From contig JBOGOC010000110.1 in NCBI GenBank assembly GCA_050747525.1, forward strand, positions 17,303-81,302: a DNA stretch of 64,000 bases, given 5' to 3'. The position numbers were made by a program, and so were the translations under genes. Positions 1-43,514 of this stretch are shown piece after piece. The notes beneath the pieces are model-generated. The model did not search any database. It was given only the letters and a program-made list of their open reading frames with translations, and had not been told where the DNA came from. The stretch is from Candidatus Polarisedimenticolia bacterium (lineage in GTDB: Bacteria; Acidobacteriota; Polarisedimenticolia; JACPZX01; DASXTC01). Numbering within the stretch: the first letter of the stretch is position 1; each line of letters starts with the position of its first letter.

Positions 1-1
1 C

Positions 2-280
2 ATTGTCGCCAGTCGAGAACGCCTCGTCGACCTCGAGGCGGACCTGGCAGCGTTTCCCCGACCCCGTACCGGATCGCCATGGCCCATGGCGCTCCTCTCG
101 GACGCCGGCGGAGAACGGCTCCGCGGCGCGGGCATCCTCGTCCTCGACTCTCACTCCTCTCCGGGATCCACCCGGCTGACGCCCCGGCTGAACCTGCTCG
201 CCGCATCGCTCGCCACCGACGTCGAGACCACCACAGGCGTCTGGGTGCGTCGAATCGATCTCGACAATCCCGGCCGATAG
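2..280 (+). CDS. Partial CDS (5' end outside the window): C-terminal extracytoplasmic domain of a membrane Ser/Thr kinase paralog
   Basis: Frame-2 translation IVASRERLVDLEADLAAFPRPRTGSPWPMALLSDAGGERLRGAGILVLD...RLNLLAASLATDVETTTGVWVRRIDLDNPGR* aligns residue-by-residue with the C-terminus of the kinase at 37387..39075 (FLIVASRERLFDLESDLEAFPRPRAGSPLSMALLSPSAGERLRGAGILVVD...RIELDNPGR*). It is followed by the same downstream motif. Confidence 0.6.
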   Translation: MVASRERLVDLEADLAAFPRPRTGSPWPMALLSDAGGERLRGAGILVLDSHSSPGSTRLTPRLNLLAASLATDVETTTGVWVRRIDLDNPGR

Positions 281-285
281 TCACA

Positions 286-335
286 GCTCCTCCTGTTCAT
301 CGAGCCTCCCTCCGGTGTTATCCATCTTCGAAGGG
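286..335 (+). promoter_or_regulatory. Conserved promoter-like motif, copy 1 (TGTTCA -N18- [TG]TTATCC with a conserved leader cttcgaagg)
   Basis: cctcctgttcatcgagcctccctccggtgttatccatcttcgaaggga lies ~65 nt upstream of the start at 397. The same architecture is found at 9190 and 39090. Confidence 0.5.
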
Positions 336-396
336 ACGCCCGGATCGAGATAACGCGATCCCCCACCGCGTAGTCGTGGGGGCTGGAGGAGGCTCG

Positions 397-966
397 ATGA
401 ATCGCACCGTCATGTCGTTCGTCTGTTTGCTCGCCGGGAGCGGGCTTCTCGTCCATGGGGCGGAATCGCGCATTCCCATCTACCAGCCTGTCGTCATCAA
501 CACCCCAGGCCATTACTTCCTCACCCAGGACATCACCGCCTCCGTCGGCAGCGTCATCAGGATTCGAGCCAACAACGTCACCCTGGACCTGAACGGGCAC
601 ACGATCACGCATACGGCACTGGGTGGCACTGGCATCTTCATCGACACGATTGCCGAGCTGCCACTCCGGGGTATCGTCGTCAGGAACGGGTACATCAACG
701 GCGCCCCCTTCGGGATTTCCTCGTACGATGTGTCCGGCGATGTGTCCGGCGTCGGCGCTGACGTGCAGCTGACCGTCGAGCGGGTTCAAATCTCCGGTGG
801 CAGGGAGGGGATCAGAATTCAACTCGACAAGAAGCGACTCGGGGGCCACATGGGGAGAGCCCGAGTATTGTTGCCGCTGCAACCACCGCTTCAGGCCCCA
901 AGCAGCCGCGGCCTGGACACGCCTCGGACGCCACGGCGTTCCTTCTGTAGCGGAGGAACGACGTAG
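397..966 (+). CDS. Small secreted right-handed beta-helix-like protein (189 aa), possibly truncated or frameshifted at its C-terminus
   Basis: ATG at 397 sits 6 nt after GGAGGAGG. Signal peptide MNRTVMSFVCLLAGSGLLVHGAES. Parallel beta-helix-like repeats (NNVTLDLNGHTITH, GIVVRNGYINGA). The last ~45 aa (GGHMGRARVLLPLQPPLQAPSSRGLDTPRTPRR) are low-complexity and look non-native. The stop TAG 964-966 overlaps the GTG at 966 of the next gene. Confidence 0.5.
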   Translation: MNRTVMSFVCLLAGSGLLVHGAESRIPIYQPVVINTPGHYFLTQDITASVGSVIRIRANNVTLDLNGHTITHTALGGTGIFIDTIAELPLRGIVVRNGYINGAPFGISSYDVSGDVSGVGADVQLTVERVQISGGREGIRIQLDKKRLGGHMGRARVLLPLQPPLQAPSSRGLDTPRTPRRSFCSGGTT

Positions 967-3900
967 TGCGCGATCAACGATCCATAGCCATAGATGGGCG
1001 TTCGCAGTACTTCGCTGGTCGTGTCCCCTTCTGGAGGTTGCTGACCCTCGCGACCTTCGTGACGTGTTCGATGGCGAACGCCCTGGAACCCCCGCCGCAT
1101 GGTGACGTACTGTCGCAGAAACGGTTCTTCAAGCCGGAACTGTACATCAGCACGTCGAACGTACTCGATGATTCCGGCACGCTGCTCGGTGCAAGGCAGG
1201 CCGCATTGGAACGTTTCTTCGCCGAGCACACGTCCCAGTTCCGAGTCTACTTCGATCCTCGCTCCGGAACCCCGAGCAACCTACTCGGCTCGATCCCCCT
1301 CCTGCCAGGTCCCGGCGTCGGGAACGACCTGACGCTCCAAGACGTCGCGCAGCGCCTCAGCCGAACGGTCGTCAAGGTCGACGCCGTCGTTGTCTCCGAC
1401 CTCGTCCGGTCCTTGATCGTGGAGCACGCGGATGCTTTCTCGATCGACTCTGAGCAACTCGGGGGCGCGACGGCGGCACCGGTCGCCGATCACTTGTGGC
1501 AAGTCAGCATCGCCCAGCAGTTCGATGGCCTTCCGGTACGCCACTCTCGGATCGTCGCCACGATCAACAACGGGAACCTCGTGCTCTTGGGTACGGAGAG
1601 CTGGGGCGACGTTGGCGAGCTCAAGACCCAGGCATCGATCACGGCCGATCAGGCGCTGGAGTTAGGTTTCGCCTACGTTGGCGGCCGGGCCGTCGAGGAC
1701 GAACTCTGGCGCTCGCCCAAGCTCGAGATCATACCCATTGCGCCTCCCGAGCACCAAGACGGCGGTCGGTTCGTCGGACCGATCGGCGCGGGCTACGCGC
1801 ATCGGCTGGTCTGGTCGTTCGGCTTCGAGCGGCCGCCAGAGCCAGCACGCTGGGAGTTGCTAGTCGACGCTCACTCGGGCGAGGTTCTGGCTTTCGAGGA
1901 TACCAATCAATATGCGACGGAAAGCGTCTCCGGTGGCGTCTATCCGATCACCAGCACGGAGATCTGTCCGACGGACGAGACCTGCGGCACCATGCAATCT
2001 GCGGTACCCATGCCTTACGCAGACACCGGGTTGTTGCCGCCCAATGACTTCACCGATGCTGCGGGGCAGTTCGAGCACGCAGGGGGCCCCGTCACGACGA
2101 CGCTGAAGGGGCGGTTCGTCTGGATGGCGGATACCTGCGGGGTGATCAACGGAACCGCCGCCGGGAGCATCGACCTCGGAGGGGTCAACGGCGACCACGA
2201 CTGCACGAGCGGAGGCGGCTCGCCCGGCAACACGGCGACATCGCGCACCTGCTACTACGAGCTGAACCAGCAGGCGGCAATGGCGCGGGGCTGGCTGCCG
2301 GGGAACGTATGGCTGCAAGGTCCGCTCCGCGCGAACGTGAACGTGGCGGGCACTTGCAACGCGTTCTGGGACAGGATCTTGGGATCGGTCAACTTCTACA
2401 AGAGCGGCGGCGGCTGCCGGAACACCGGGGAGATGGCGTCGGTCATCGACCACGAATGGGGCCACGGCCTCGACGACAACGACGCCGGCGGCCTGCTCAG
2501 CAACTCCAGCGAGGCCTACGCCGACATCGCGGCTCTGTACCGCACGCAGGCATCGTGCCTGGGGCATGGCTTCTTCCACACGTTCAATAGGGGGTGCGGT
2601 CAGACTTCCGACGGAACCGGTTTCAATCAGAACGAGTCGCAGACCGGCATGCACTGCAACCTCGACTGCTCGGGGGTACGGGACGCCGATTGGGCCCGGC
2701 ACATCGATGGCCTACCCGATACGCCGGCGAGCTGGAACTGCGTGCATTGCGGTGGGGGTACCGGACCCTGCGGCAGACAGGTGCACTGCGCGGCAGCGCC
2801 GGCGAGGCAGGCGGCCTGGGACCTCGTGGCGCGCGACCTGCAGAGTCCTCCTTTCGACTACGAGCCCAACACGGCATTCATCATCGGCAACAAGCTCTTC
2901 TACCAGGGAAGCGGCAACATCGGTGCGTGGCACGCGTGCACGTGTCCTGACTCGGACGGCTGCGGCGCTGCAAACGCATACATGCAATGGCTGGCCGCGG
3001 ACGACGACAATGGGAGCCTCATCGACGGGACGCCGCACATGTCCGCCCTGCATGCGGCGTTCGATCGACATGCGATCGCCTGCGCAGCTCCGGCACCAAC
3101 GAACAGCGGGTGTGCGGGCGGTCCGACAGGTGCACCGTCGCTGGACGTCATCGTCGGAAGCCGGCGGCTCGACCTGTCGTGGAATGCGGTCGCCGGCGCC
3201 AGCTCCTACCGCGTGTTCCGCACCGAGGGCCATGCCGGTTGCGCGTTCGGCAAGACGTTGATCGCCACGGTCGCCGGGACCAGCCACGCGGACACCGCGC
3301 TGGCGAACGACCGCGGCTACAGCTACGTCGTGCAAGCGGTCGGCGCCAGTGGTGCCTGCTTTGGCTCGGCAAGCAACTGCGTGACGGCTGCGCCGCAGTT
3401 GCAGTCGTGCGTCGGCGCGGTCGCCCTCGGTGCGGAAACGTACGGCTGCGCCGGAGTGTTGGAGGTGTCCCTGTCGGATTCCGACCTGGAGGGGGCGGGT
3501 ACTGCGGTGATCGAGATCTCCTCCACGACGGAGCCGATTGCCGAAACGCTCGGGTTGACCGAGGTCCCTCCGAATTCCGGGGTCTTCACCGGCACCCTGG
3601 CCACGACGGCCGCACCGCCCGTGCCTGCCGACGGCGCCGTCTCGGTCGTCGACGGGGACACGATCACCGTGCGTTATCAAGACGCCTCGGCTTGTGGGCC
3701 GCCGAGCGTCGCAGAGGCAATGAGTTCGGTGGATTGTGTCGGCCCTGTGGTCGTCAGCATCAGTCCACCGGACAACGCGGCTGGCGTTCCGCAGGCGACC
3801 GTGATCCTCGCGCAGTTCGACGAGCCCGTGGATCCGACGACGGTCACGACGTCGACATTCGTCGTCCTGAATTGCACCGAGACGCAGGTGGCAGGGACCC

Positions 3901-6650
3901 TGTCGGTGTCGGACGACCGGAGGGCCGTAACCTTCGTTCCCACGGACGGCCTCGCACCCGACACACGCTATTTCGTTTCCCTCACGTCCGGAATCGAGGA
4001 TCCCCTCGGCAACGGCCTGGTGCCGTTCAACAGCTCGTTTCTGACGTCGTCGGTTCCGGCCGCCGCGGTCCCCGCGGATTCTATCGGAGCGTCGGAGGCC
4101 GGGACGGCCATCGGCGGACCGAACGCCGGCGCGAACTTCGGACGCGGTGTCGCCGCAGTCGAGGACATCGACGGCGACGGCATCGGAGAGCTGCTCGTCG
4201 GGGCACCGCGGGCCCAGCCGAATGGTGTCGACTCTGGCGCGGCCTACCTGATCTTCGGAGGATCGACGGGCCCGCAGGAAGACCCTACACAGTGGGTCAG
4301 CTTCCTCGGTGAGGCAGCCGGAGACAGCGCGGGGTTCTCGGTCGCGGCGGCCGGAGACGTGAACGGCGATCACGTCCCGGACCTTCTGATCGGAGCGCCC
4401 GGGAACGACGCGGCAGGATCCGGTTCCGGTCGGGCCTATGTCGTGTTCGGAGGAGGGAACCTCACGCCTGGAGCCGTGATCGAGCTGGCCCACGTCGGCG
4501 GCTCGGTGCCCGGGGTGAAGATCACCGGAGCCGAGGCCGGGGACCAGCTCGGCTTCTCGATCTCCGGCGGCGGGGACCCGAACGTCGATGGCACGAGCGA
4601 CGTGCTGCTTGGGGCACCGTTCTCGGACCCGGGGGGCGATGTGGATGCAGGCCGAGCGTTCCTGCTCTTCGGACCTCTGACGCCCGGCGAGATCAGCCTG
4701 ATTGACGTTGGCGAGCCTGGCACGACGGCTGCCGGCGTCGTCTACGAGGGTGCTGCCGCCGGCGACGAGACCGGTCGCTCCGTAACGCTGTGGCTCGACT
4801 CCGGAACCACTGACGGCGACGGTTTTGACGATGTGGTCATCGGCAGCCCGGGTGCGGACCCTGTCGTCAACTCGGTGGCCTACCCGGACGGCGGAATCGT
4901 CTACGTCGTCCACGGCGGAGCTGCCAATCTCGCGGAGAGCCCCGTTCGGCTCGATCGAGTGGCGAACGGAGGAACCGACGCGATCTCGGGAGTGCAATTC
5001 CAGAACGACTTTGCCGCGGAACGGATGGGAACGACGGTAGGCGGCGCCGACTTCACGTCGACCTCGGGGACCGGCGCTCTCGCGGCCGGCGCCCCGGGGG
5101 ACAGTGCACAGCAGAGTGCCGCGGCCCTGTGCGTGAGGAAGGTCAAGGTATGGAGGCCGCCGATCGTCTGCGCTCGATGCCTGAGTGTCAAGGCCAAGAT
5201 CACCGCCAGTAACTCGTCGGCATCGAGCTCGATCTTCGCGATGACCCGCTCTTGCTCGGCCGCCCTAGCAGCAGAGCCAGCTGCGTCGCCAACGCTCGAC
5301 TTTCAAGACTTGGGTGGGCTGGACGCAGGGAATGTCCTCGCCTTCGTGGGGGACGTCGACGGACTTCAGGGCGAGGACCTCGCGATCGGGGTCCCGTCGG
5401 AGGTGGTCGGCGGCCTTGATGGAGCGGGCAGGGTGTTCGTTGTCTCTGGCGGCTCGATGCAGCCTGGAACTGTGAAGGACCTGGACGATGTGGGCCAAAC
5501 CGTTCCCGGCTTCGTCCTCGAAGGGGACGAGGCGCAAGGGCTCCTGGGCCGCTCGGTCGGGGGCGGATTCGATGTGAACGGCGATGCCGTGGCGGACCTG
5601 CTCGTCGGAGGCCCGCTGATCAACCCGCCCTCTCCCCAGCAGCCGCCGGCCACGATCACCGACGCCGGGGAGACGTTCGTCGTCTCCCACGTCCCGCCGG
5701 GCGCGGTCGGGAGTGGAGCAGCGGCCCCCCTCCTGTACTCGGGTAACAATGTCCTAGAGTGGGGAGGCGTCGACCGGGCGACCCGCTACAACGTCTACCG
5801 CGGTCTCTTGAGCACCTTGCGCTCGGACGGCCGGGTCTACACCAGTTCCATGGTTTGCCTGGCCAACGACACCACGCGCGATGACGATGCGGACGGCCTG
5901 CCCGACGCCGCCGATGCCGACATCCCGCCACCGGGTGACGGCTTCTTCTACCTGATCACGGCCGAGAACGACTCGGGGGAGGGGTCGCTCGGCACCGACA
6001 GCGCGGGCAAGCTGCGTGTCAACAACTCGCCCTGCAGCGGCTCACAGACCGAGTCCATCCCGGGCCAGGGCGACGCGGATGGCGACAGCTTCGTCGATCT
6101 CTGCGACAACTGCCCGACCGTCGCGAACGCGAACCAGCTCGACACGGACGGCGATGCCGCGGGCAACGCCTGCGACCCGGACGACGACAACGACGGCTTG
6201 CTGGACACCGAGGAACTCGCGCTCGGAACGGACCCGTTGCTGTCGGACACTGACGGCGACGGGTTGTCGGATTTCGATGAGGTCCGGGTGCACGGTACCG
6301 ATCCCCTCGATCCTGATCCAGACGGCGACGGATGTCCGGACCCGGTGGAGCTTGCTCGAGGGTCCGACCCCCACGTAGCCGACACCGACTCCGACGGCTT
6401 CCTCGACTGCGCCGACAACTGCCCCGCGGTCGCGAACCCGTTGCAGGAGGACGCCGACGGCGACAGTGTCGGCGACGCGTGCGAGCTCCATCTGAAGGCG
6501 GCGACCCTTGACGGGGCGGGAGGCCGGATGACGTCCCCGGCGGTTTCCATGGCCCGGGCGAGCCTGGGCCAGACGGCGGCCGGGCGCTCCCAGTCTCCGG
6601 GAGGCGAGTACAGGCTGCGCGGTGGCTTCGTCGCGGCGGTGGCACCGTGA
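966..6650 (+). CDS. Very large secreted Zn metalloprotease (HEXXH) with FG-GAP (integrin-alpha-like) repeats, Ig/FN3-like domains and C-terminal thrombospondin type-3 (TSP3) calcium-binding repeats
   Basis: 1894-aa ORF. HEWGHGLDDND zinc-binding motif. Several FG-GAP units (DIDGDGIGELLVGAP, DVNGDHVPDLLIGAP, GDVDGLQGEDLAIGVP). TSP3-type repeats DTDGDAAGNACDPDDDNDGLLD, DSDGFLDCADNCPAVANP near the C-terminus. N-terminal hydrophobic segment FWRLLTLATFVTCSMANA. The exact start is uncertain: GTG 966 is the first start after the in-frame stop at 948. Confidence 0.75.
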   Translation: MRDQRSIAIDGRSQYFAGRVPFWRLLTLATFVTCSMANALEPPPHGDVLSQKRFFKPELYISTSNVLDDSGTLLGARQAALERFFAEHTSQFRVYFDPRSGTPSNLLGSIPLLPGPGVGNDLTLQDVAQRLSRTVVKVDAVVVSDLVRSLIVEHADAFSIDSEQLGGATAAPVADHLWQVSIAQQFDGLPVRHSRIVATINNGNLVLLGTESWGDVGELKTQASITADQALELGFAYVGGRAVEDELWRSPKLEIIPIAPPEHQDGGRFVGPIGAGYAHRLVWSFGFERPPEPARWELLVDAHSGEVLAFEDTNQYATESVSGGVYPITSTEICPTDETCGTMQSAVPMPYADTGLLPPNDFTDAAGQFEHAGGPVTTTLKGRFVWMADTCGVINGTAAGSIDLGGVNGDHDCTSGGGSPGNTATSRTCYYELNQQAAMARGWLPGNVWLQGPLRANVNVAGTCNAFWDRILGSVNFYKSGGGCRNTGEMASVIDHEWGHGLDDNDAGGLLSNSSEAYADIAALYRTQASCLGHGFFHTFNRGCGQTSDGTGFNQNESQTGMHCNLDCSGVRDADWARHIDGLPDTPASWNCVHCGGGTGPCGRQVHCAAAPARQAAWDLVARDLQSPPFDYEPNTAFIIGNKLFYQGSGNIGAWHACTCPDSDGCGAANAYMQWLAADDDNGSLIDGTPHMSALHAAFDRHAIACAAPAPTNSGCAGGPTGAPSLDVIVGSRRLDLSWNAVAGASSYRVFRTEGHAGCAFGKTLIATVAGTSHADTALANDRGYSYVVQAVGASGACFGSASNCVTAAPQLQSCVGAVALGAETYGCAGVLEVSLSDSDLEGAGTAVIEISSTTEPIAETLGLTEVPPNSGVFTGTLATTAAPPVPADGAVSVVDGDTITVRYQDASACGPPSVAEAMSSVDCVGPVVVSISPPDNAAGVPQATVILAQFDEPVDPTTVTTSTFVVLNCTETQVAGTLSVSDDRRAVTFVPTDGLAPDTRYFVSLTSGIEDPLGNGLVPFNSSFLTSSVPAAAVPADSIGASEAGTAIGGPNAGANFGRGVAAVEDIDGDGIGELLVGAPRAQPNGVDSGAAYLIFGGSTGPQEDPTQWVSFLGEAAGDSAGFSVAAAGDVNGDHVPDLLIGAPGNDAAGSGSGRAYVVFGGGNLTPGAVIELAHVGGSVPGVKITGAEAGDQLGFSISGGGDPNVDGTSDVLLGAPFSDPGGDVDAGRAFLLFGPLTPGEISLIDVGEPGTTAAGVVYEGAAAGDETGRSVTLWLDSGTTDGDGFDDVVIGSPGADPVVNSVAYPDGGIVYVVHGGAANLAESPVRLDRVANGGTDAISGVQFQNDFAAERMGTTVGGADFTSTSGTGALAAGAPGDSAQQSAAALCVRKVKVWRPPIVCARCLSVKAKITASNSSASSSIFAMTRSCSAALAAEPAASPTLDFQDLGGLDAGNVLAFVGDVDGLQGEDLAIGVPSEVVGGLDGAGRVFVVSGGSMQPGTVKDLDDVGQTVPGFVLEGDEAQGLLGRSVGGGFDVNGDAVADLLVGGPLINPPSPQQPPATITDAGETFVVSHVPPGAVGSGAAAPLLYSGNNVLEWGGVDRATRYNVYRGLLSTLRSDGRVYTSSMVCLANDTTRDDDADGLPDAADADIPPPGDGFFYLITAENDSGEGSLGTDSAGKLRVNNSPCSGSQTESIPGQGDADGDSFVDLCDNCPTVANANQLDTDGDAAGNACDPDDDNDGLLDTEELALGTDPLLSDTDGDGLSDFDEVRVHGTDPLDPDPDGDGCPDPVELARGSDPHVADTDSDGFLDCADNCPAVANPLQEDADGDSVGDACELHLKAATLDGAGGRMTSPAVSMARASLGQTAAGRSQSPGGEYRLRGGFVAAVAP

Positions 6651-6688
6651 CAGCAAGCAAGCGGGATCTCGGAATGTTTAGGAGGTGG

Positions 6689-8527
6689 ATGGACATGCGA
6701 TGCTTTCTTATCTGCTCAGTGACCCTCGCGATCGCGTTCGGCCAGCCAATGTTCGCGCAGGGCGCTCCAGCGCTGCTCTCGTATCAGGGGCAGCTCACGA
6801 ACGCCGTCGGCGCCCCCATCACGAGTCCGACGCCGGTGCGTTTCACCCTGCTGTGGGGCGGCACGGCGAACGAGATCCCGTCCACCGGCAAGCCGGTGTA
6901 CCAGGAGGACGTCACCGTCGCACCCGACGGGGAAGGGGTGTTCCATCACCTGATCGGTGCCGGAACGCCCACCTCCGGGTGCGACGAGAACCGGGACGGC
7001 ACCGCGAACGAGCCGTGCGTCCTGACGCCTTCCGACTTTTCCGACTCGGTCACTGCGGTGTACCTCGAACTACGTGTGGATCCCGGTGGCACGAATAACG
7101 TTCTGGTGCCACGGCAGCGGACAGCAAGCGTGGGCTATGCGCTGGAAGCGGATACTCTCGATGGTCAGCATGCCACTGGGTTGGCCGACACTCTCGATTC
7201 CGCCTACCACCGCGGCGGCGCCGGGGCGGGCCGCACCATTGTCGCGGACTCGGGCGCTGTGAGCATCGCCGGCTCGGACGGTCTGACCGTGAACGGCAGC
7301 GTCGGAATCGGCACCACTACGCCCGCCAGCAAGCTACAGGTGTCGAGCGGAGCAGGTACAACGGAACTACGCATCACGAATACGGCTGCTCCAGTAGATG
7401 GTGTCGTGCGTACGGGTCTGCCCGGTGGCATCGCCAGCATGCAACTCGGCACGCTAACGTTGCATGACCTTGCCCTTGCGGCTGGCAACGCTACGCGGGT
7501 GACGATTAACGCAAGTTCCGGCAACGTCGGAATCGGCACTGCGACGCCGGGTGAAAAGCTTACCGTTGCGGGCACCATCCGCTCGACGAGCGGCGGGTAC
7601 AGATTCCCGGACGGTACAGTCCAAGGCTCGGCGGCCTCGCCCATCAATGGCATTCGTACACCACTTCAAATTGCGCTGTTGCGTTGGTACGAGTCCAACC
7701 AGGGGCCAGCAAGGTTCAGTTTTCCGGGTGGCATGTACGGAGGAAGCTCGGTCGCCTTCGACGGAGACCACATGTGGGTGGTTCTTGACCTCTTCAACAG
7801 GGTGCTCAAGTTGCGGGCCAGCGATGGGGCGCAGGTCGGCAACTTTGCGACCGGAGCCGGGGCGACCGCCGCGTCCTTTGATGGGGCCAACATCTGGGTG
7901 GCCAACTCTGACGCCGACAGCGTGACCAAGTTGCGAGCCAGCGATGGGGCATCACTCGGCACGTTCGCGGTCGGCGATGATCCGCGGGCCGTGACCTTCG
8001 ACGGTGCAAACGTCTGGGTGGGAAACTGGGCCAGCGACTCCTTGACCAAGCTTCGTGCCAGCGATGGAGTATCCCTCGGTACGTTCGCGGTCGGTGACGG
8101 CCCGGAGGGTCTATGCTTCGACGGGGCGAACATCTGGGTGACGAACTTCAATAGCGACAACGTGACGAAGATACGGGCCAGTGACGGATCGTTGCTGGGC
8201 ACATTCGGCGTCGGAAACGGTCCGCGGGGATTGGCCTTCGATGGCGCCAACATCTGGATCGCGAACTTTTTCGGTAGTGTAACGAAGCTACGTGCCAGCG
8301 ACGGAGCGCTGCTGGGAACCTTTCCGGCTGGCAGCAATCCGGCGGCCGTCGCTTTTGATGGTGCGAACATCTGGGTGGCCAACCAATCCAGCAACGTTGT
8401 AACCAAGCTGCAAGCGAGCGACGGAGCGCCGCTGGGAACCTTTCCGGCTGGGGAACTACCACAGGCGATCGCCTTCGATGGAGCCAACTTTTGGGTCGTC
8501 GGCTGGTATTACGTGTCGAAGCTGTAA
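6689..8527 (+). CDS. Secreted protein: N-terminal tail-collar-associated domain, tail-fibre-like G-rich repeats, then a 6-bladed NHL/YVTN-like beta-propeller
   Basis: AGGAGG at 6680-6685 followed by ATGs at 6689 and 6695. Signal peptide MDMRCFLICSVTLAIAFGQPMFAQG. N-domain LLSYQGQLTNAVGAPITSP is homologous to the N-termini of the tail-collar proteins at 44420 and 45384. Repeats SGNVGIGTATPGEKLTVAG. Six repeats LRASDGxxLGTFxVGxxPxxxxFDGANIWVxN. Confidence 0.7.
   Translation: MDMRCFLICSVTLAIAFGQPMFAQGAPALLSYQGQLTNAVGAPITSPTPVRFTLLWGGTANEIPSTGKPVYQEDVTVAPDGEGVFHHLIGAGTPTSGCDENRDGTANEPCVLTPSDFSDSVTAVYLELRVDPGGTNNVLVPRQRTASVGYALEADTLDGQHATGLADTLDSAYHRGGAGAGRTIVADSGAVSIAGSDGLTVNGSVGIGTTTPASKLQVSSGAGTTELRITNTAAPVDGVVRTGLPGGIASMQLGTLTLHDLALAAGNATRVTINASSGNVGIGTATPGEKLTVAGTIRSTSGGYRFPDGTVQGSAASPINGIRTPLQIALLRWYESNQGPARFSFPGGMYGGSSVAFDGDHMWVVLDLFNRVLKLRASDGAQVGNFATGAGATAASFDGANIWVANSDADSVTKLRASDGASLGTFAVGDDPRAVTFDGANVWVGNWASDSLTKLRASDGVSLGTFAVGDGPEGLCFDGANIWVTNFNSDNVTKIRASDGSLLGTFGVGNGPRGLAFDGANIWIANFFGSVTKLRASDGALLGTFPAGSNPAAVAFDGANIWVANQSSNVVTKLQASDGAPLGTFPAGELPQAIAFDGANFWVVGWYYVSKL
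7756..8515 (+). repeat. In-gene tandem DNA repeat, ~126-bp period, 6 copies, ~80% identity (encodes the NHL-type blades)
   Basis: Repeated units gtgaccaagttgcgagccagcgatggg...ttcgacgg.gcaaacatctgggtgg.caac are seen directly in the sequence. Confidence 0.7.
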
Positions 8528-8665
8528 ACGGGGCAGTGGGTGCCAAGTCAACCGAGAGTCGAGGCTGGAGTCGCTGGATGTTCCGCAACGGAGCGCTTCT
8601 TCCAGGACGTGATAACAGCGGGCGGGTTCGGGCCCGCAGCACCCTCCGCAGCTGGATAGGTTGTG

Positions 8666-8703
8666 GAAGCCCGGGCGCGGCCGGCCGGGGCTTCCTCCTT
8701 TCG
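8666..8703 (+). terminator. GC-rich hairpin, possible intrinsic terminator between the convergent NHL-protein gene and the tmRNA-like gene
   Basis: GGAAGCCCGG-gcgcggccgg-CCGGGGCTTCC forms an ~8-10 bp stem and is followed by tcctttc. It lies between a + gene end (8527) and a - RNA end (8847). The T-tract is weak. Confidence 0.3.
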
Positions 8704-8846
8704 GGGGACTCATTTCCACCAGCTTGGAGTTCCTATCCACCGCTGTCCGGCAGATATTGGCTTCGCCGAGCCGCGGATGTCGGTCCAGCCGCTCCTGGAA
8801 ACAGCGCGCGGCGAGGGCGATAGGGACGACGGTATCGCGGAATGAG

Positions 8847-9193
8847 TGGTGGAGGCGGCGGGAGTCGAACCGGCGCTGGCGGTCTGGGATGGCTTCCAGT
8901 TCACGCACCAGGCGCCGGATGCCGCATGGCCCGCTGGTGGCCAGATAGCGGCGCTTGCCGGAGTCACCATCCTCACGGGCGGAGGAGGAACCCAGGGATC
9001 GACACGCCGTATACTTCGTTCCTCTCCATAGATCGCACCTGAGGAGCCACCCCTTCCCAGCCATGCGGTCGCGTGGTGATCGACAAGCCGGAGCGCCCAC
9101 CTCGCCTGACGACGTGTTCATCACGCCGGACGGCGCCTCCACGGGGGACGCCTTCACCGGGGAGTCACCTGCGAGGTGAGACGGCGTCACCCC
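8847..9193 (-). ncRNA. ssrA: tmRNA (ssrA)-like gene, 347 nt; alternatively only a partial 3' (att-like) copy
   Basis: The minus-strand 3' end reads ...CCAGCGCCGGUUCGACUCCCGCCGCCUCCACCA. This is a tRNA-Ala-like T-arm plus acceptor with encoded CCA, near-identical to known tmRNA 3' termini (E. coli ...CGGGUUCAACUCCCGCCAGCUCCACCA). The complementary 5' acceptor strand GGGGGUG at 9193 (RC of caccccc) gives a G3.U70 pair and a GGGGnUGA start. Its length is typical for tmRNA. No protein gene occupies the interval. No canonical tag-peptide ORF ending in ..AA-stop could be identified, and the 5' D-analogue UUCGAC is not obvious. Confidence 0.45.
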
Positions 9194-9241
9194 CTCTCCT
9201 GTTCGTCGGGCCTAGGTCCGGTGTTATCCACCTTCGAATGG
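9190..9241 (+). promoter_or_regulatory. Conserved promoter-like motif, copy 2, upstream of the giant subtilase gene
   Basis: cccctctcctgttcgtcgggcctaggtccggtgttatccaccttcgaatgga. The spacing between TGTTCG and TTATCC is 18 nt, as in the other copies. It lies ~50 nt upstream of ATG 9286. Confidence 0.5.
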
Positions 9242-9285
9242 ACCTCTCGAAAGCACAGGCGACGGCCTCAACCGAGGAGCACGAG

Positions 9286-12200
9286 ATGCATGCGTTCCGA
9301 GCTGCAAGGGTGGTGAAAAGGCTGTTCTGGTCTGGCATCGCCTTTTCTATTGTCATCTCCATCACCTCGTGGACCAGCCCGGCACCTGGACGCGACGGCT
9401 CCGAGCGCCGGCCGCTCCCCACCGCGGGCGCCGACACCGAACATCCGGATGACGCTCTGACGGCCGAGGTGCGGTTCCTCGAGAAGGGCAGACGACAGCT
9501 CTACCCGCGCCCCGAGCCGACCTGGTGGCCGGTCAGCAACGCGGGGGGATTGAAGCCCTACGGTCACGTCCCCGCGAGCGACCTCGACTCCCCCTACACG
9601 CTGATCCTCCCCAACGGGAAGGGCTCCATTGACACACGGAAGCGGAGCTACCGCCACGATCTGCCGGCTGTCCTGCGTGGCGGCTCAGGGAAAGGCCACC
9701 GGCCGGGGCGCGGTCTCTACTACCTCGTCCAGTTCAGGCCGGAAGCGGCCGCCGGCAAGGTCTCCCTCAGCCTCCATGAGGACCTGAGGCGTCTGGGCGC
9801 CGAACCGATCGAGTACGTTCCGCACAACGGGTGGCTGGTGCGCATGGCAGGCGAGCAGGAGGCGGCGGGACTGGGGAAGGCGGGCATCTTCCAGTTCGTG
9901 AGTCCCTTCGAGCCGGCCGACAAGATCCACCCAGACACCGGACGCAAACCTCTTTTGAATCCGGAGCGTGCCAGCTCCGATCTCTTCGAAGTCATCGTCC
10001 GCGTGATGCCCGCCGAGGATGCGGAGGAAGTGGCCGCCACCGTGCGACGCGCGGGTGGTGAGGTCCTGCGGCTCGACCGCGACCCGCGCGGGAACACACT
10101 CATCTCGGCACGGCTGCGCAACAGCAGGCTGCTGGAGCTACTGGCGGACCCAGGTGTGATGGGACTCTGGGAATCGCCGGAGTACGTGCAGTTGGATCTG
10201 GCGCCGGCGGCCCAGATGGAGGTCGGTCGCATCCTGGATCCGCGCGATTTCGGCGACTTCATCCTGCCGTTCCGGCAGGCCGGCATCGATGGCGGCGGCA
10301 CCTATATCGGTCCCCCGGTCGACTTCACCATGCCCGGCGTCCCGGGAGCGCCGATCCCCTTCAGCTCGGCACTGGGCTTCTACGCAGGTCCGCCGCAGTT
10401 TCTCGGGGTGGCGGACAATGGCCTGACGCTGGACAGCCCGGCCTTCGCCCATGACAACTCGAACCCATGCCTCGCCCCGGGGGCCTGCGTCGACGGCGGG
10501 GGGTTCGCGGGCCTCGCAAATGTTGGGGTGTTTCATCGGAGAATCGAGGCTTACACCGAGGGTGACGACTTCGACCCGGGGGCCTCCGGCGACTTCCTCA
10601 CATGCGACGCGATCGGGTCGGGGGGGCGCACGCACGGAACCATTGTGACCGCCGCGGCTGCGGGCAACCCGAGCGGAGGCCTGTTCGGCCTGGGCCGATT
10701 CTACGATGACGTGGACGCGATCGGGCAGCACAGGGTCTTCTTCAACGACTCGCGCGAGACGGACCTGCCACTGGACGGACAGGCCCGCGGGGCGAGAGTC
10801 ATTTTCCAGGACATCGCGGTGACGCCGCCGGCTTCGCCACCGGCTTGTGCCGCGAACTTCCAGTCCGACGTGGACGCGGGTGCCCTTCCTTCCGATCGGC
10901 TCGAGGACATGGCGTACCGCTGCGACCTCTTCGGACCAGGATGCCCCGGCCCGCTCGACCCCCGGGGTGCGAAGGTGACGCTGTTCGCCTTCGGCAATCC
11001 GGTCAACTTCGACGATGCCGCCGGCAACGGCAACGGCGTCTATGGCGTGGGGGCCGACACGGTGGACGCGTTCCTCTTCCTGAACCGCAGGATTACGCAC
11101 GTCCAGGCCGTGGGCAACGACGGCGCCGATCCGGATGACGGCTCCGATATCGACCCGTTCGTCCCGGCGCTGGCCCCCGGAAGCATCCAGATCAACAGCC
11201 TGGCCACGGGGAAGAACGTGGTGACCGTGGGGGCCAACCACACCGACAGCATCGATCCGCTCGGCATGGGATTCGGCGCGGACCCATCCGAGTTCATCGC
11301 CAACTTCAGCAGCAAGGGGCCGGCGACCTTCGCCTCCGGACGCGGCGCCCCGCTGGTGGTGGCGCCTGGCTTCGACGTGGGCCAGGGGCTCAAAGGGCGG
11401 CGCTCCGACGACTACTTCATCTCTGCGGCGACGGTCCTGTCGCGCGACAACGGCAACGACATGCTCGGGGCGGACGAGGTGGAGAACTTCGTCGTCGAAG
11501 GGGCCGCGGGGACCTCGATCTCCGCGGGCCGCGTGGCTGGAGCGGCGCTGCTGATCCGCGACTACTTCGCCAAGGGGTTCTACCCGACCGGCGCGGCCAC
11601 TGCAGCGGACATAGTCCCCGACATCTCCGGGATGCTGGTGAAGGCGGTGCTGGTCAACAGCACCGATTTCTCCTCGCGCGGCCCTCTGATCGAGTCGTGC
11701 GAAGGACGCGGGCCGCTGATGTGTCCATCGGAGCAGGGCTACGGCAAGGTCGAGCTGGCCAATACCCTTCCGTTGCAGAACTACCGCGCGGAGCGGCGGC
11801 CCCCCTCGCCGACGAACGTGGCTCCGGTCACCAACGTCCCGCAGGCGCTGCTGGTCGCCGACGAGTATTTCGACGGCGGGATGCGCGGCACAGGGCCCGG
11901 CGGCAGCACGACCGGCATCGCCGTGGTTCCGGTCGGGGGGTCGGTGTCGTTCGACTTCTTCCGGCGCCACGGCAACGACCAGCTCAGAGTGAGCCTGGCC
12001 TGGTATGACGCCGTCGGAGAGCTGCTCGCGAACGACCTCAACCTGGAGGTCACCAGCGGCGACTACCAGACCTCGCTCGGGGGGGCTGGCATCTGCGGAC
12101 CGGTGGGCGGTGGCATACCCGCCGTCTGCGGCGATTGCACGATTGCCGCCAACTACCCGGGGGAGGCGCTCTATTTCGACCCCACGGGGGTGAACCCCTA

Positions 12201-15200
12201 CGTACAGATATTCCGAGGCAACCAGTTCCGCGCCTTTGACGGGCAGTTCTCCTATCGGGTCGAGTGCGACGCGGCCGGAGCGCCGGAACCACCGGCCGTC
12301 GCTCCCCAGAACGCCTTCGACGACACCAACCCCACCGAGTCGGTGATGCTGCACTACCTGGGGGATCCATTGGCCTTCGGGCAAACCAGAAGCGGGGGCG
12401 ACCACGGCCCCTATCGAGTCCGGGTGAGCTTCCCGGCCACGCCGGCATCGACACCCGTCCCTGATGCTCCCGTGATCCATCCGGGCCCCGATGGAGATCT
12501 GGACGCCGTTCCCGTCGCGGACGACACGATGCTGGCGTTCTCCGACGGGACCCCCTACATCGGAGCCGGGCCTGACGGGATCGCCGACACGGCGCCCGTT
12601 GCCGACGACATCGCGCTGATCCCGCTGGGAAGCTTCGGGCAGCCGTTCGCCCTGGTGGCCGCCGGGCCCGTCCTGGCCAACACGCCGACGGACCCTCGTG
12701 GCACCGCCCGGGTGAGCAGCGTGGTCGCTTTCAACAAGGATGTATTCGACTGCTCCGACGAATTGACCTTGCGCGTGGCCGACTGGAGCCTGCCGGTTCC
12801 GCCGGCGTCGAGCATCGGCGCGAACACCCTCGTGAACGTGCTCGATTCCACGGGAGCGATCGTGGACACCGAGGCGGGATTCACCTTCACCGTCGATCCC
12901 GGCTCCTCGGCGCTCCGAGTCTCGCGAGCCATGCACTACAACTCGTCGTCCCTCGACCTCGGAACTCCGGTGGTCGGCGGGCCCGTCCCCTTCAACAGCC
13001 TCCTGGAGGTCATGGAAGGCTGGACGCTCCAGGCCGTATACGACGATCCCACCCCCGTGGTGATGGTTGGGGGGAGGCCGATTCCTCTTGACGCCGTCAC
13101 CACCGCGCGGGTGAGGTGCCGGCCCTTCCTGGGCCCCACGCTCCTGACGCTGGAGGACGAGAACGCACGCCGCACCGTCATCTCGGGAGGGTGCGACGAG
13201 GGACGCGTCCGGCAGGCTCCCGGCGACCTCTTCCTGGACGCGGACGAGTCGGTGGTGTACCAGGTCGGCTTCGCGAACCACGGCCACGAGGCGCTCGAGG
13301 ACCTGCGCGCCACGCTCACCTGCGCGGATCCATTGCCCGGATTCCCGAACCCCTGCGCCTTCGTCACGATCGTGCGGGCGAACGCGGTTCTCGGGACGAT
13401 CCCTCCGGGCTCCGAGGGGGTCGCAGCCTGGACGCTCAAGATCGCTCCCACCGTCGTAACGCTCTTGGGGGGCCCGCCGGCGGATCTGGCCGTGGACCTC
13501 ACGGTGACCTTCTCGGCTCCAGAGCTCGCGGGCGTTGCCTTCACATTCCGCGAGGGGCTCCAGGCCGACATGGAGGTTCTGCGGTACAACACGGACTTCC
13601 CCGGCGGCGGCACTCGTGCCGCGGACTACGACAGGAACGGCGTGATCGCGACTCTGCCGCCCGGATCGGGGGCGCGCAACCGCGAACTGATGGAGTTCGA
13701 GCCCCTTGTCTTCGCCGGCAGTCCCAACGCGGGTCTGGCCGGCCTCATTCCCTGGCGCTTCGACTCCAACGCCGGTGGGTTCACCGCATTCCGTACAGGA
13801 ACCAGCAAGCCGGGGTTCCCTCAGAACGCCCTGGCCTGGTTCTACGGCACGGCAGGTGGCTGCGGCTGGCAGACCCAGAACAACGGAATCGTCGGTCTCA
13901 GCACCACTCTGCCCAAAGGCGTGTGGCACGCCGGCCACGGACCGGTCGGTACCTTCAGGGCGGCGGGCGCCTGTCCCGCCTATACCAATCCCAGCGATCC
14001 CCTGACCCGTCCCTTCACCGAGTTCATCCACGATGTCCTCCGATCTCCCGTCCTCTTCAAGATGAACCCCGGCACCGACGCCCGCGGCATGCCCCTCGAT
14101 CTGAGGATCGAGGCGATCGGATGGAATGAGAATCAGCATTTCGGAGATTCATCCACCGTCGCCTCGCTCGCCGTCGACACCAACATCATGGATGATGGCC
14201 CGGTGGTTCTGGGAGATCCCTATGCAGAGAACATCCCCTTCGTCACGAGCGGACCAAGGCTCAATGCGGCCCACTCCCAGCGAACCTTCGGGCCCCTGCG
14301 CGACAGCGACAACTCTCTCCCCGGAAAGGGCGGTGCGAACGGAGACGAGGTGGGCGTCGCGGAGCCGCTCGTACAAGGGAGCGAGTTCAACTTCATCGAG
14401 CGCAGGCTGCTTGCCTATCCAGCGGTAGACGCGGATGCAAACATTCGTGGCTTCCAGAGCAGAACGGCGGTTGACGGGGTCGGCCACAGCACGCCCTGGG
14501 GGCCGGTCCGCAACCGCGACTCCAACGCCAGCGGGAGCGAGATCGTCGATTTCGGCGGCAGCTTCGAGGACTTCTACGGCGCCTCGGGGGATGCCTTCCA
14601 GTTCGAGTTCGGGTGGACGCTGTTCGAGGGTGGGGTAGGAGCCCGGGGATGGACCATCGACGATCCCTACATCGAGTGGTCCGAGCAGCATGCGGTCGAC
14701 CAGGCGCCGGGGAGCGTCAACGACTGCTCGGAGATCCCGTTTCGACCCGGCTCCGACCCGGCCTCCAGCCAGTGCGCCGTCGTCTCCTTTGAGAGGCTGA
14801 CCCTTCACGAGTGCACGGAAGGAGTCATCGTGACGGTCATTGATGGGACGACCGCCTCGACGGTGGGAACCATGGGATGCCCGATCGGGCAGGTGCCGGT
14901 CCTGCTTCGCAGCGCCGGCGAGCCGGCCGGGGAGATCTTCTGCCTAGCCCCGCGGGGAGGCGGCAACTTCAACAATACCGTCTCGCTGAGCGGTCTGTCC
15001 GATCAACCCGGATTCCTCTTCGTCAATCCGGCCGACGGCCAGAACGCGAGCATCGAGGCAATCTACCGGGATCCCGAGTGTGACCGGGACCATGACGGCG
15101 TTCTCGGTGAGAACGATCCCGTCGATGTCGACGGCGACGGTGTACCCAACTTCGGCGCCGATGGAGTCTTCGGCGACTCCGATCCCGCGGCGCTGCTGGC

Positions 15201-18200
15201 CGGAGGAGAGGGAGCCTCTGACGACGACAACTGCTTCGACCCGGTCAAGCTGATCGATATCTTCAACCCGCCGGGCGTGCCGCAGATGGATCTGGCTCCG
15301 CCCGTGGGGATCACGCCGGCCGACTGCGTCCCGTCGCCCACTAATGGCCAGTGCGACTTCGATGACGACGGCAGGGGCGATCTGTGCGACAACTGCCCAT
15401 CCACGCCCAACCACAAGCAGCTCGACACGGACGGCGACGGCGTCGGGGACTCCTGCGAAGTGAGCGACATCGACGTGGACGGCGTTGTCAACGACATCGA
15501 CAACTGTCCGACCGTGCCGAATCCGGCCCAGGCACCCGGCGCGGGCGGAAGGGGCGCCGTCTGCGATGCCGCTGCGGACATGGACAGCGACGGGGTCGCC
15601 GAGGTGACCGACAACTGTCCGAACGAGGGAGCTTTTCCCATCTCGACCACCTACAACCCGGCGCAGGAGGATCACGACGGGGACGGAGTCGGCGACCGGT
15701 GCGATTCCGACGATTTCGACGGGGACGGCGCGATGAACTCCGCCGACTCCTGCCCGACGGTGTTCAACGTGGTCGATCCGGCCCTCAGGACGCAGGCCGA
15801 CTCGGACCGCGACGGGCGGGGCGACGACCGCGGTGGCATCGATGCGACCGCCGGTCCCGCGAACTACTGCGATCCTGACCAGGACGACGACGACGGCAGT
15901 GGCGCTCCGGATGACCTGGTGGGGTTCTCCGCGTCGGTGCGGTGCAACTTCAACCAGTTCGGCATCAACAACGCGGCCGGACCCCAGGCGGCCGTGGGCT
16001 CTCTGGTGCTGGAGGGGTTCACCATCACCGACGATGGGGCAGCCGATGGAGGGGTCCCCGACGGAATCGCCGATCCCGGCGAGCTGGTCTCGGTGACTCT
16101 CACGCTCCGCAACGCCTCGCTGGATCGCGGGACGGGACTCCCGCGTCCTCTGACCAATCTGATGGTCGGGATCAAGCCTCTGACTCCTTCGATCTCGAGC
16201 GTGCCGCTGTCCGAGGTCTCCATCGGGTTGCTTGCGGGTATGGGCACCGTCACGACGCCCCCCGGCGGCCTCAGCTTCATCGTCAATCCGGCACTCCCGG
16301 GACCCGGCCAGTCGGTGCCGGGCCATCCCGCCCAGGCGGAGTTCCTGGTGACGGCGCAGGCAAAGGAGATGACGGGGATCGCCCCGGAGCAGAAGTTCCG
16401 CATCTTCGTCGATCTGGACGTGGCCCACGCGGGGCTCGCCCCCGCGGCGTGTCCCGGCATCCCGGCGATGGCGGGTCCCGGGGTTCTCTGTGAGAACTTC
16501 GACACCGATCTCAACGGAAGCCTGGCACTCGATCCCTGGACCCGCTTGCCGATCGGTCTCGATGCCGCCGATCCTCAGAACAGAGCGTTGCAGGATCCCG
16601 CGGACGACATCATCGGATACGCACAGGGAACCGGGTCAGGCTCCGCCTTCAACACGAATGCGAGGCTCTGCTCCTCGGACAAGGCCGCCGGCGCGCCCGC
16701 GACCTGTCAGGCGGTCGCGGAGGAGAACGACTGGCACCTGCATTCGCCCGTGAACGGTCCTGGCGCCGGATATGCGCCGGGGGCTCCCCCCGCGATCGGC
16801 GCGCCCGACGGGGGCAAGGCGCACAGCGGCGTGCAGTCGCTTCACTTCGGCCGGCACCTCGACCCCGCGTCGACGCTGTCCGACACGACGCGATACCGGC
16901 AGGCGGCCGCCTATGTCCTGGACATGGATCCCCCCCTGGTCCCCGGTCCGGCCAGCAGGCTGGAGTTCTGGCACATCATCCAGATGCCTGACGACGACTC
17001 GATCGGCGCGGAAGCGGGGACCTCGCTGGGAGGCGGCCAGGTCCAGGTCAGTGTGAAGGAGGGCCCCGCCGGCCTGTTCGGCAAGTGGCGAACGCTGACT
17101 CCTCTGTGCAACGGCTACAACTCGCTGGTGCAGGGGACCTACGCCGTTTGCCAGTTCGATCCGGGCGACGACGGCTCGCTCGACATGGACGAGACGATGT
17201 GCAACGGTCAGCCGGTGTGGTCCGATATCGGCGACGTGCAGGCCACGGCATCGGTGTGCGGAGGCGACAGCGACGGCAACGGTCAGGACGATTGCGGGGA
17301 GATCGCGAGCACTGTATGTCCCGCCCTGCCGGGCGGAGTTCCGGACACAGTCTCTCTCGGCTCGACAGGCACCGGCGTGTGGGCACGCTCCCAGGTCGAT
17401 CTGTCGCCATTCGCAGGTCGAGAAGTGCGGCTGCGCTGGATCGCCACGACAGCGGGCGGGTGGGACTTCGGCAGGGACCGCTCCGCGCTGGAACCTGAAA
17501 CCGGCCCGGCCAGCCAGTACTATGAAGCAGACGACGGCTGGTGGATCGACAATATCGTCCTGACGGGCCTCCTGGTGGCGCCCTCGGCCTTCGCTCCTGA
17601 CCCGGCAGCCGGTCCGTTTGCGCTGACCGGCCCGCAGTCCGGTGAACCGGACTTTCTGGTTGGCTCAGCGGCCGGCCTGGCGCCACAGGATCCGGCCAAT
17701 TGCGGCGTCGTCACGCTGAACCTGGCGAACTCGATCCCCTATGGCAGCAACCGGCTCTTGAGCAGCGAGGGGCCGGGACGCCACATCCAGCTCGATGCGT
17801 TCCAGTCCGCCGCCGGCGATGACCCGAACACGCAGGCCGTCGAGGGCCGGTGTGAGCGAGGATTGCTGGAGTTCCAGTTCAGCCAGCTCGGCCCGACCGG
17901 CTCGGTGGTCGAGGTCATCAAGGAGTTCTCGCCGGCGCGCGTCGCGAACGTGCGGCCCGCGGCAGACACGATGTACCGCCTGGCCGGGCGCTGCTCCTCG
18001 GATCTCGCCTGCGCGGCCAGCCAGGACGTCCTCGTCAAGCTGTACACGGGAGACGGATCGGACCTGAACCCTGCGCCCGGTGAGTTCGGCCTCGAGGTCA
18101 CGGGCGGGGCCACGGCTACCCTGCAGTGGCCCTCGCGGCCTCAACCTGCGGGGATCTCCGGCTACGATGTCTTCCGGTACGCCAGCGGCACCAACACCGG

Positions 18201-36602: not shown

Positions 36603-36776
36603 GGACGTACTCCTTGGCAGGAAGCGGGGCGACTATATCACGGTCCTGTTCGTTCCACGACAATCCGGTGTTCTTCCTTGCGGAGACAGGGAGCTCTTTT
36701 TTCTTCTGATGAGCGGCAAGGACGCGTATGATGGCGATGAAGCCGTCTGGGGTTCGGCTGAGAGTCAGGACCAGGC

Positions 36777-37403
36777 ATGCTGGAAGACCCTACCGGCCGT
36801 GGGTCACGCGGACCGGTCGATTCGTCTATATCGCCGCTCGAATCGTCGGCAGAGCTGCTGCGCCGCGCCCGGGATGGCGACTCCCAGGCTCTCAACAGCC
36901 TTTGCGAACGGATCATCCCCCCGCTGAAACGATGGGCGAGGCATCGGCTCCCTTCGTGGGCGCGCGACCTGGTCGACACCGACGACCTGGTGCAGGAAGC
37001 GGTGCTGGGTACCATCCACCAGATCGAGAACTTCGAGCCCCATCACCAGGGGGCGATCCACGCCTACCTGCGCCAGGCGCTCCAGAGCCGGATGCTCAAC
37101 GAACTGCGGCGTGCCCGCCGTCATCCTCATTCCGACGCCATCGAAGGGGACGGTCAGTTGGATCCCTCCCCCTCACCGCTGGAGGCGGCGATCGGCCACG
37201 AGGCCCTGGCGCGATACGAGTCGGCCCTGCAGCGGCTCAGACCTGACGAGCGCGAGGCGATCGTCGCACGCGTCGAGATGGGGATGGGCTACGCCGAGCT
37301 GGCGCAGGCGATCGGCAAACCGACGCCGGATGCCGCCCGCGTGGCGGTCGGCAGAGCGCTTCTCCGGCTGGCCCAGGAGATGCGGTATGAGCGAACGCGA
37401 TGA
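36777..37403 (+). CDS. ECF-type RNA polymerase sigma factor (sigma-70 regions 2 and 4)
   Basis: 208 aa. Region 2 DLVQEAVLGTIHQIENFEP. Region 4 PDEREAIVARVEMGMGYAELAQAIGKPTPDAARVAVGRALLRL. The stop overlaps the downstream kinase gene start by 17 nt. Confidence 0.8.
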   Translation: MLEDPTGRGSRGPVDSSISPLESSAELLRRARDGDSQALNSLCERIIPPLKRWARHRLPSWARDLVDTDDLVQEAVLGTIHQIENFEPHHQGAIHAYLRQALQSRMLNELRRARRHPHSDAIEGDGQLDPSPSPLEAAIGHEALARYESALQRLRPDEREAIVARVEMGMGYAELAQAIGKPTPDAARVAVGRALLRLAQEMRYERTR

Positions 37404-39089: not shown

Positions 39090-39140
39090 CCCCTCCCTGT
39101 TCGTCCCGTCCCGCCCCGGTGTTATCAGCGGCGAAGGAAG
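39090..39140 (+). promoter_or_regulatory. Conserved promoter-like motif, copy 3, upstream of the kelch-subtilase gene
   Basis: ccctccctgttcgtcccgtcccgccccggtgttatcagcggcgaaggaagc. TGTTCG -18- TTATCA. It lies directly after the kinase stop and ~75 nt before GTG 39208. Confidence 0.5.
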
Positions 39141-39207
39141 CACGTATCGAAGCAACGCGATCCCTTGCGACGGAATGTGAGGGGCGCCTCTCAGAGAGAG
39201 GTGAGGT

Positions 39208-43476: not shown

Positions 43477-43514
43477 CCGGGCCGGTCGTGATCCGTGTCA
43501 TCAGGAGGCTTGCC

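Follow-up and report, generated by a model that had tools for sequence, protein, structure and literature searches.

The window, a stretch of 64,000 nt from contig JBOGOC010000110.1 of a Candidatus Polarisedimenticolia bacterium, contains a gene for an extracytoplasmic function (ECF) sigma factor that overlaps a gene for a membrane-bound Ser/Thr kinase, four copies of a bipartite promoter-like motif and, at its very start, the 3′ end of a second kinase gene. We consider it probable that these elements belong to one regulon, in which a single sigma/kinase switch acts through the four promoter copies, with three operons for giant proteases as its outputs, and in which a second kinase survives at the window start in truncated form. 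Read in this way, the locus provides a testable regulon for an uncharacterised and, in soil Acidobacteriota, very abundant family of kinase-linked ECF sigma factors; the testable elements in this genome are the promoter TGTTC-N17-YGTT, the autoregulation of the sigma/kinase pair and the three giant-protease operons as outputs. It would also be an example of regulon rewiring, a paralogous regulator having been lost while its promoter and payload stay and are apparently readable by the surviving paralogue; the principles of ECF/kinase signalling are unchanged by the finding. The features concerned are collected in Table 1.

The sigma factor passes the Pfam cut-offs for Sigma70_r2 (41.8 bits) and Sigma70_ECF (25.6 bits), falls marginally under that for Sigma70_r4_2 (25.4 against 25.7 bits) and scores 73.4 bits against the TIGR02937 sigma70-ECF profile, whose cut-off is 42.9; on these profiles it is an ECF (group 4) member of the sigma-70 family. 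Its best subfamily matches in NCBIfam, ShbA and Planctomycetaceae subfamily 1, lie far under their cut-offs. The sigma gene stops past the ATG of the kinase gene at 37387, giving the 17-nt overlap described in an earlier note on this DNA. The kinase, for which independent gene calls give the same length of 562 amino acids (aa), is of the Hanks type: the Pkinase profile matches with 125.7 bits, and the motifs GEGTGG (GxGxxG, residues 73-78), VALK with K95, HRD (184-186), DFS (204-206, a DFG variant) and APE (230-232) are present. The catalytic domain (residues 66-308) is followed by one membrane helix (343-358) and by an extracytoplasmic part consisting of a DUF4384 module (PF14326; 45.7 bits against a cut-off of 27, residues 395-476), modelled as an immunoglobulin-like (Ig-like) β-sandwich, and a conserved tail. 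In 118 database proteins, this 212-residue extracytoplasmic part is conserved as one unit.

A homology search with the sigma factor returned 3851 proteins at E <= 1e-5, and a pattern scan built on an alignment of 33 sequences (the window sigma factor and 32 homologues) yielded 80 loci, mostly from Vicinamibacterales and other Acidobacteriota. In about 74 of these 80 loci, the sigma gene is directly followed by a kinase catalytic domain, and the coupling of ECF sigma factor and Ser/Thr kinase that the earlier note had proposed is thus a genuine and conserved one. By these comparisons, the window sigma factor is a member of a large Acidobacteriota ECF family almost always encoded directly ahead of a Ser/Thr kinase gene. 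No anti-sigma Pfam domain was seen near the sigma gene, whose neighbours encode a TPR-CHAT protein and a subtilase, in general domain scans; no search aimed at anti-sigmas was made.

The open frame at the start of the window enters from beyond its 5′ end and closes with a TAG stop at 278-280. Its 92 residues align without gaps with residues 471-562 of the kinase (63/92 identical, 68%; BLASTP E 4e-37) and belong to the extracytoplasmic part, behind the Pfam match to DUF4384. The DNA upstream of position 1 was read from the NCBI contig L001 (GCA_974107545.1, CDBFBP010000146.1), in which window position 1 corresponds to 9605 and which is 100% identical to the window, with 0 mismatches, across the whole 10,966-nt overlap. 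On this contig, the complete remnant comprises 212 codons (L001 9246..9881) that correspond to kinase residues 351-562, at 71% amino-acid and 73% nucleotide identity, and is made up of half of the membrane helix, the DUF4384 module and the C-terminal tail; it is annotated as DUF4384 in two assemblies. The paralogy between this C-terminal domain and the kinase, already noticed from the window sequence, therefore stands, although at 68-71% identity the two are not near-identical, as had been stated, and the segment sits at the 5′ end of the window (2..280) and not in its 3′ 280 nt.

Between the remnant and the full kinase, the ratio of non-synonymous to synonymous divergence (dN/dS) is 0.27 at a dS of 0.78, about 49% of the synonymous sites have changed, and the 212 codons run without gap, stop or frame disruption. 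Selection therefore acted on both copies during most of their divergence. The simplest reading is that a full paralogous kinase once existed and was truncated fairly recently, and a complete second sigma-kinase cassette probably existed in the past. The same intact frame and low dN/dS would also fit a working gene in its own right, in which the kinase-less DUF4384 module serves the protease operon as, for instance, a decoy or accessory sensor, and modules truly without a kinase domain do occur in two other genomes (L088 8001..8618; L089 314..1048), the copy in L089 having its own membrane helix and lying beside an S9/Tricorn peptidase gene. We nonetheless regard this as unlikely: the remnant frame starts mid-way through the ancestral membrane helix and lacks a signal peptide, translation from the called start (MQRHTGG...) would yield a cytoplasmic protein, and neither a promoter motif nor a ribosome-binding site was identified ahead of it, while a dN/dS as low as this is also expected after a recent truncation. 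Several apparent stand-alone homologues, moreover, proved to be frameshift-split kinases in long-read assemblies, which was usually the case for the short DUF4384 homologues checked on long contigs (L083, L084 and L087). In L089, a 30-residue N-terminal fragment of a sigma factor is followed in turn by the membrane-anchored DUF4384 gene, a 744-aa open reading frame (ORF) and the gene for the S9/Tricorn-like peptidase.

The DNA behind both kinase stops has the blocks CCTGTTC, CCGGTGTTATC, CGAAGG, ATCGA and AACGCGATCCC in common, with CCGGTGTTATC beginning 13 nt after CCTGTTC in both aligned intergenic regions. The earlier note was right in seeing the same downstream motif after both kinase ends, and the exact pattern is found at 294 and 39098. 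Expressed as CTGTTC-N15-GGTGTT, the motif has four exact matches in the window (293, 9199, 36646 and 39097), and the relaxed pattern TGTTC-N17-YGTT finds the same 4 matches only in 64 kb, where 0.28 would be expected and 0 of 100 shuffles reached 4. All four copies are intergenic, on the + strand and 60-104 nt ahead of a start codon that has a purine-rich ribosome-binding site. They stand before the sigma gene, the 189-aa ORF at the head of the operon with the 1894-aa protein, the 3051-aa ORF at 9286 and the 1422-aa ORF at 39208. On this evidence, the shared motif is best read as the sigma factor's own promoter, TGTTC-N17-TGTT. Scans for a competing sigma-70-type promoter or an intrinsic terminator around both kinase ends returned nothing relevant, an Rfam scan of the whole window gave no match, and folding of the four 5′ leaders gave z-scores from -1.1 to +0.6, with no structured RNA.

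The four copies are not equally alike. Copies 1 and 2 (291..337 and 9197..9243) are identical at 40/47 positions, and the likeness extends to the spacer, normally free to vary, and some 20 nt farther downstream, which suggests that the promoter was recently copied locally within the first cluster; copy 4 is identical to copies 1 and 2 at 27/47 positions. The 11-mer AACGCGATCCC is present in identical form at 352..362 and 39154..39164, in the 5′ leaders of copies 1 and 4, whereas the leaders of copies 2 and 3 lack it. Neither an RNA structure nor a known family was found that accounts for it.

Beyond the window, 28/83 related sigma genes have TGTTC-N17-YGTT in the 300 nt before them, where 0.65 would be expected (about 40-fold enrichment), with the consensus TGTTCGgtt...cgtCGTTa.a. 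Most of the remaining 34 motif matches in the related loci precede an ORF start, a few lying inside coding sequence or appearing chance-like, and the commonest ORFs behind these other matches encode a small conserved protein of about 88 aa and a divergently oriented short kinase. Such a placement, before sigma genes and before other ORFs, is in sequence terms the signature of an autoregulated ECF promoter. Classical promoters of this kind likewise have a bipartite motif of fixed spacing before the sigma operon that is repeated at the targets, with a CGT or TGT core in the -10 box. They differ in the -35 box, which is commonly of the GGAAC type and is TGTTC here.

A placement behind the kinase is also seen in L087, where the sensor of the kinase is again of the DUF4384 type (50% identical). 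There, sigma factor and kinase were found across frameshifts by tblastn, no sigma gene being called and the gene calls lying on the opposite strand; one copy of the motif stands before the region homologous to the sigma factor and a second one immediately behind the kinase, the latter preceding genes that include Peptidase_C70 and Peptidase_S8. The layout of the window therefore recurs in an independent lineage. In 68 related cassettes from Vicinamibacterales, there were 0 matches within 300 nt after the kinase stop, and the second copy lies farther downstream.

That second copy precedes the conserved protein of about 88 aa (MDTAMTLNWLEMRR...), at about 12,600-15,800, in L011, L015, L016, L020, L025, L036, L037, L047, L054 and L055. 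It lies downstream of the sigma start, at a distance of about 4.7 kb in most cases and of about 7.7 kb in L015 and L025, and in L055 it follows a gene of the nitroreductase family. An opposite-strand copy was observed ahead of a kinase gene of about 300 aa in L008, L032, L038, L044, L050 and L063, and an S8 peptidase-like region 1.6 kb downstream of a motif copy in two loci from Acidobacteriota (L059 12689..15065 and L067 13362..15715), a hint that the sigma family may repeatedly have subtilases among its targets.

The kinase ends ahead of the copies at 294 and 39098 are homologous, and some of the similarity between these two copies is by descent; together with the unexplained 11-mer common to two of the leaders, this would fit a motif that is leftover similarity from the duplication, or the binding site of another regulator, and not the promoter of the sigma factor. 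The chances of this seem to us slight. Both boxes are perfectly kept while about half of the synonymous sites have changed, the same boxes stand at 9200 and 36647 without a preceding kinase relic, and the pair of boxes and its spacing match the motif enriched upstream of related sigma genes elsewhere. A promoter read by the sigma factor thus remains the preferred explanation of the motif.

What lies beyond the 5′ end of the window bears on the fate of the second kinase. On L001, tblastn shows the kinase homology to stop at kinase residue 351 (L001 9246), in the middle of the membrane helix, and finds no kinase catalytic domain or sigma gene in the 9.6 kb upstream of position 1, where the gene table lists an integrase and tRNAs. 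A 200-aa fragment of a tyrosine recombinase on the opposite strand (L001 8641..9243) directly abuts the kinase homology; it matches positions 49-167 of the 172 of its Pfam profile from its own residue 1, which indicates that its 5′ part is lost, and it is adjoined by a tRNA-Sec gene (ARAGORN; Rfam 76.6 bits). The Logan contig L002 has the same junction between integrase and kinase relic. Since the kinase homology ends at residue 351 against a truncated integrase, the window-start copy is a head-truncated relic fused to that integrase and not a second complete cassette. The earlier note had claimed that the whole cassette of sigma factor, kinase and protease was duplicated, and had named an upstream extension as the check and an upstream gene other than a kinase, or the lack of a sigma partner, as grounds for giving up the idea; the extension leads to the truncated integrase and tRNA-Sec, with no kinase catalytic domain and no sigma partner, and the claim falls with it. 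That two complete cassettes exist today, the first merely cut off by the window, is accordingly very improbable despite the paralogous C-terminal module and downstream motif and the long purifying selection seen in the relic.

Two further points concern this region and the integrity of the window. The tRNA-Sec and truncated recombinase (L001 8607..9243, about 360-1000 nt upstream of position 1) resemble the edge of a decayed integrative element, and the composition profile of the window contains no G+C break that would mark a genomic island. At the other end, the NCBI contig matching the window stops inside the subtilase gene, at about 39,915; the Logan contig L085 spans this point with the same gene order, and the window is therefore contiguous there.

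Several observations weigh against a single regulon of this kind. The strict pattern finds no match at 55/83 related sigma genes, and the -10 box of the window is TGTT where relatives mostly have CGTT. Promoter function is deduced from position, statistics and conservation only. Other sigma paralogues may exist elsewhere in the genome and could drive the orphan promoters, and the two assemblies with the junction, L001 and L002, may share their read origin. Lastly, the sigma factor keeps the acidic DxxD of region 2.2, and the charge-supplying phosphorylation known from ECF43 need not apply to it.

On the single-regulon reading, the system would work as follows. An extracytoplasmic cue would act on the outside part of the kinase, its Ig-like DUF4384 module, upon which the kinase would phosphorylate the sigma factor or activate it otherwise. 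The sigma factor is predicted to recognise CCTGTTC as the -35 element and, after a spacer, CCGGTGTTATC as the -10 element, and RNA polymerase carrying it would fire all four promoters. Copy 3, before the sigma/kinase operon, would provide positive autoregulation, and the three other copies would drive the operons of one putative metalloendopeptidase and two subtilases, all of them very large and secreted. A deletion would have fused the kinase relic to the truncated integrase by tRNA-Sec, removing the kinase domain and anything further upstream; the relic was kept together with its own downstream promoter. The orphan promoters at 294 and 9200 carry the surviving sigma factor's own promoter boxes and are therefore most likely driven by it now.

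Pairs of ECF sigma factors and Ser/Thr kinases are a recognised class, of which ECF43 alone has been studied experimentally (EcfP-PknT and EcfK-PknS; PMC7826278, PMC8999054, PMC13147305), in Vibrio parahaemolyticus and Xanthomonas citri, respectively (PMC8999054, PMC13147305). The window pair resembles these in that the sigma gene lies next to one for a Ser/Thr kinase that crosses the membrane once and has a variable domain outside the cytoplasm, and in that the sigma factor runs a dedicated gene set, here a predicted one. The hallmark of ECF43 is the loss of the acidic DxxD in region 2.2, with the consensus QTTA/STTA and a phospho-accepting Thr at position 3 (PMC13147305, PMC8999054). The window sigma factor, by contrast, has D67-T68-D69-D70, with Asp at position 3 and the conserved Thr at position 2, and the ECF43-like label given in the earlier note is not supported. 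In the 33 aligned sequences, T68 and D70 are found throughout and D69 almost throughout, the third position is acidic (Asp or Glu) in nearly all and the motif is D-T-D-D or a close variant; xTxD is found in 83/83 sigma matches, a count for which the search pattern itself was partly selective. The outputs differ too, being polymyxin resistance or type VI secretion in ECF43 pairs and, as predicted, giant secreted proteases here.

Other groups predicted to be kinase-linked are ECF59, ECF61, ECF62, ECF217, ECF283 and ECF267, the last with a TPR protein (PMC7826278, PMC8999054). Kinase-linked groups other than ECF43 keep an acidic, DAED-like motif with Ser or Thr in or near it (PMC8999054), a description that the window sigma factor fits, with its acidic motif kept and a Thr within. 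It is set apart from them by the listed taxa: model members of ECF59, 61, 62 and 217 come from Planctomycetes and that of ECF283 from an actinobacterium (PMC8999054), ECF267 is listed as 100% Proteobacteria (PMC7826278) and the window sigma family is one of Acidobacteriota. As a tentative and on balance improbable extension, the family, which is almost always translationally coupled to a kinase and yet keeps its acidic patch with an invariant Thr inside, might use a phospho-control unlike the ECF43 charge switch, for example by a modulating or inhibitory phosphorylation or a site in the linker, and act in this lineage as a dedicated switch for giant secreted proteases, with the intact kinase-less DUF4384 modules beside protease operons in three independent loci serving as accessory or decoy sensors.

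Table 1. Features of the window, in positions of the 64,000-nt stretch, with the basis of each assignment
Position	Strand	Feature	Basis
2..280	+	3′ end (92 codons + stop) of 5′-truncated paralogue of Ser/Thr kinase	BLASTP, tblastn, dN/dS
294..319	+	putative promoter copy 1, TGTTC (-35) N17 TGTT (-10), ends 77 nt before ATG at 397	pattern match
397..966	+	189-aa ORF, signal-peptide-like N-terminus, GGAGGAGG ribosome-binding site	gene call
966..6650	+	1894-aa putative secreted metalloendopeptidase; HEWGH...EAYAD, Big_5, FG-GAP, bacterial thrombospondin type 3 (TSP3) repeats, weak PepSY (sub-threshold)	sequence motifs
6647..8527	+	626-aa β-propeller-repeat protein, start overlaps previous stop	profile match
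9200..9225	+	putative promoter copy 2, ends 60 nt before ATG at 9286	pattern match
9286..18441	+	3051-aa secreted protein, Peptidase_S8 and TSP3 repeats	profile match
33138..36602	-	1154-aa protein, nine TPR_12 matches and CHAT (caspase-like) domain, divergent from sigma gene	profile match
36647..36672	+	putative promoter copy 3 (autoregulatory), ends 104 nt before sigma ATG	pattern match
36777..37403	+	ECF sigma factor, 208 aa, sigma-2.2 motif D67-T68-D69-D70	Pfam, TIGR02937, alignment
37387..39075	+	single-pass membrane Hanks-type Ser/Thr kinase, 562 aa, ATG at 37387	Pkinase, DUF4384, motifs
39098..39123	+	putative promoter copy 4, 23 nt past kinase stop, ends 84 nt before GTG at 39208	pattern match
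39208..43476	+	1422-aa subtilase, secreted; Kelch propeller and cohesin domains; GTG start	profile match
43473..44357	+	294-aa cohesin-domain protein, start overlaps subtilase stop	profile match

The genes downstream of the four promoter copies account for the predicted outputs. Proteins encoded after both kinase ends have signal-peptide-like N-termini, which bears out part of the earlier statement that secreted hydrolase genes follow in both places; the first downstream genes at the window start are not demonstrably hydrolases. The 189-aa ORF, which is carried by L001 and L002 with the same gene call in both assemblies, has no family match and may be a damaged gene. Its first half is reminiscent of a β-helix, and its last 45 or so residues are of low complexity and rich in Pro and Arg. 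The 1894-aa protein behind it has HEWGH followed by EAYAD, a candidate for the HExxH and downstream Glu ligand of gluzincin-type metalloendopeptidases, and no protease-domain match in Pfam, NCBIfam or the PDB. Its N-terminal region has 575 homologues at E <= 1e-5, the best 120 of them at 58-66% identity, and several are named by NCBI as 'endopeptidase' or 'PepSY domain-containing'; a putative metalloendopeptidase is the likely assignment. Next to the homologues in two other genomes (L090 and L091), neither a sigma-kinase pair nor the motif was found upstream or nearby, and the recruitment of this gene to the regulon therefore looks lineage-specific. The β-propeller protein that follows is probably encoded in the same operon. 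In the gap of about 660 nt behind it (8527..9190), the sole gene call (244 aa, minus strand; L001 18060..18794) has no Pfam match and is possibly another decayed gene.

Both remaining outputs contain a Peptidase_S8 domain, with a partial match of 39.1 bits in the 3051-aa protein and 115.5 bits in the 1422-aa subtilase, where the D, H and S motifs DTGVD, HGTHVAG and GTSMASPHVAG are readable. The two are alike in their TSP3-like repeats only and are otherwise not paralogues, in agreement with the different protease payloads described before. The cohesin-domain gene behind the subtilase is probably part of its operon.

The TPR-CHAT protein encoded divergently from the sigma gene was considered as a generally conserved neighbour of the sigma family and rejected as such, having a counterpart in only 1/82 loci (L083, among the 80 sigma-family loci together with L083 and L084). 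Beside kinases with the DUF4384 sensor, TPR-CHAT genes and clostripain-like Peptidase_C11 genes, together with other peptidases, do recur (L083, L087 and the JGI contig of P0167).

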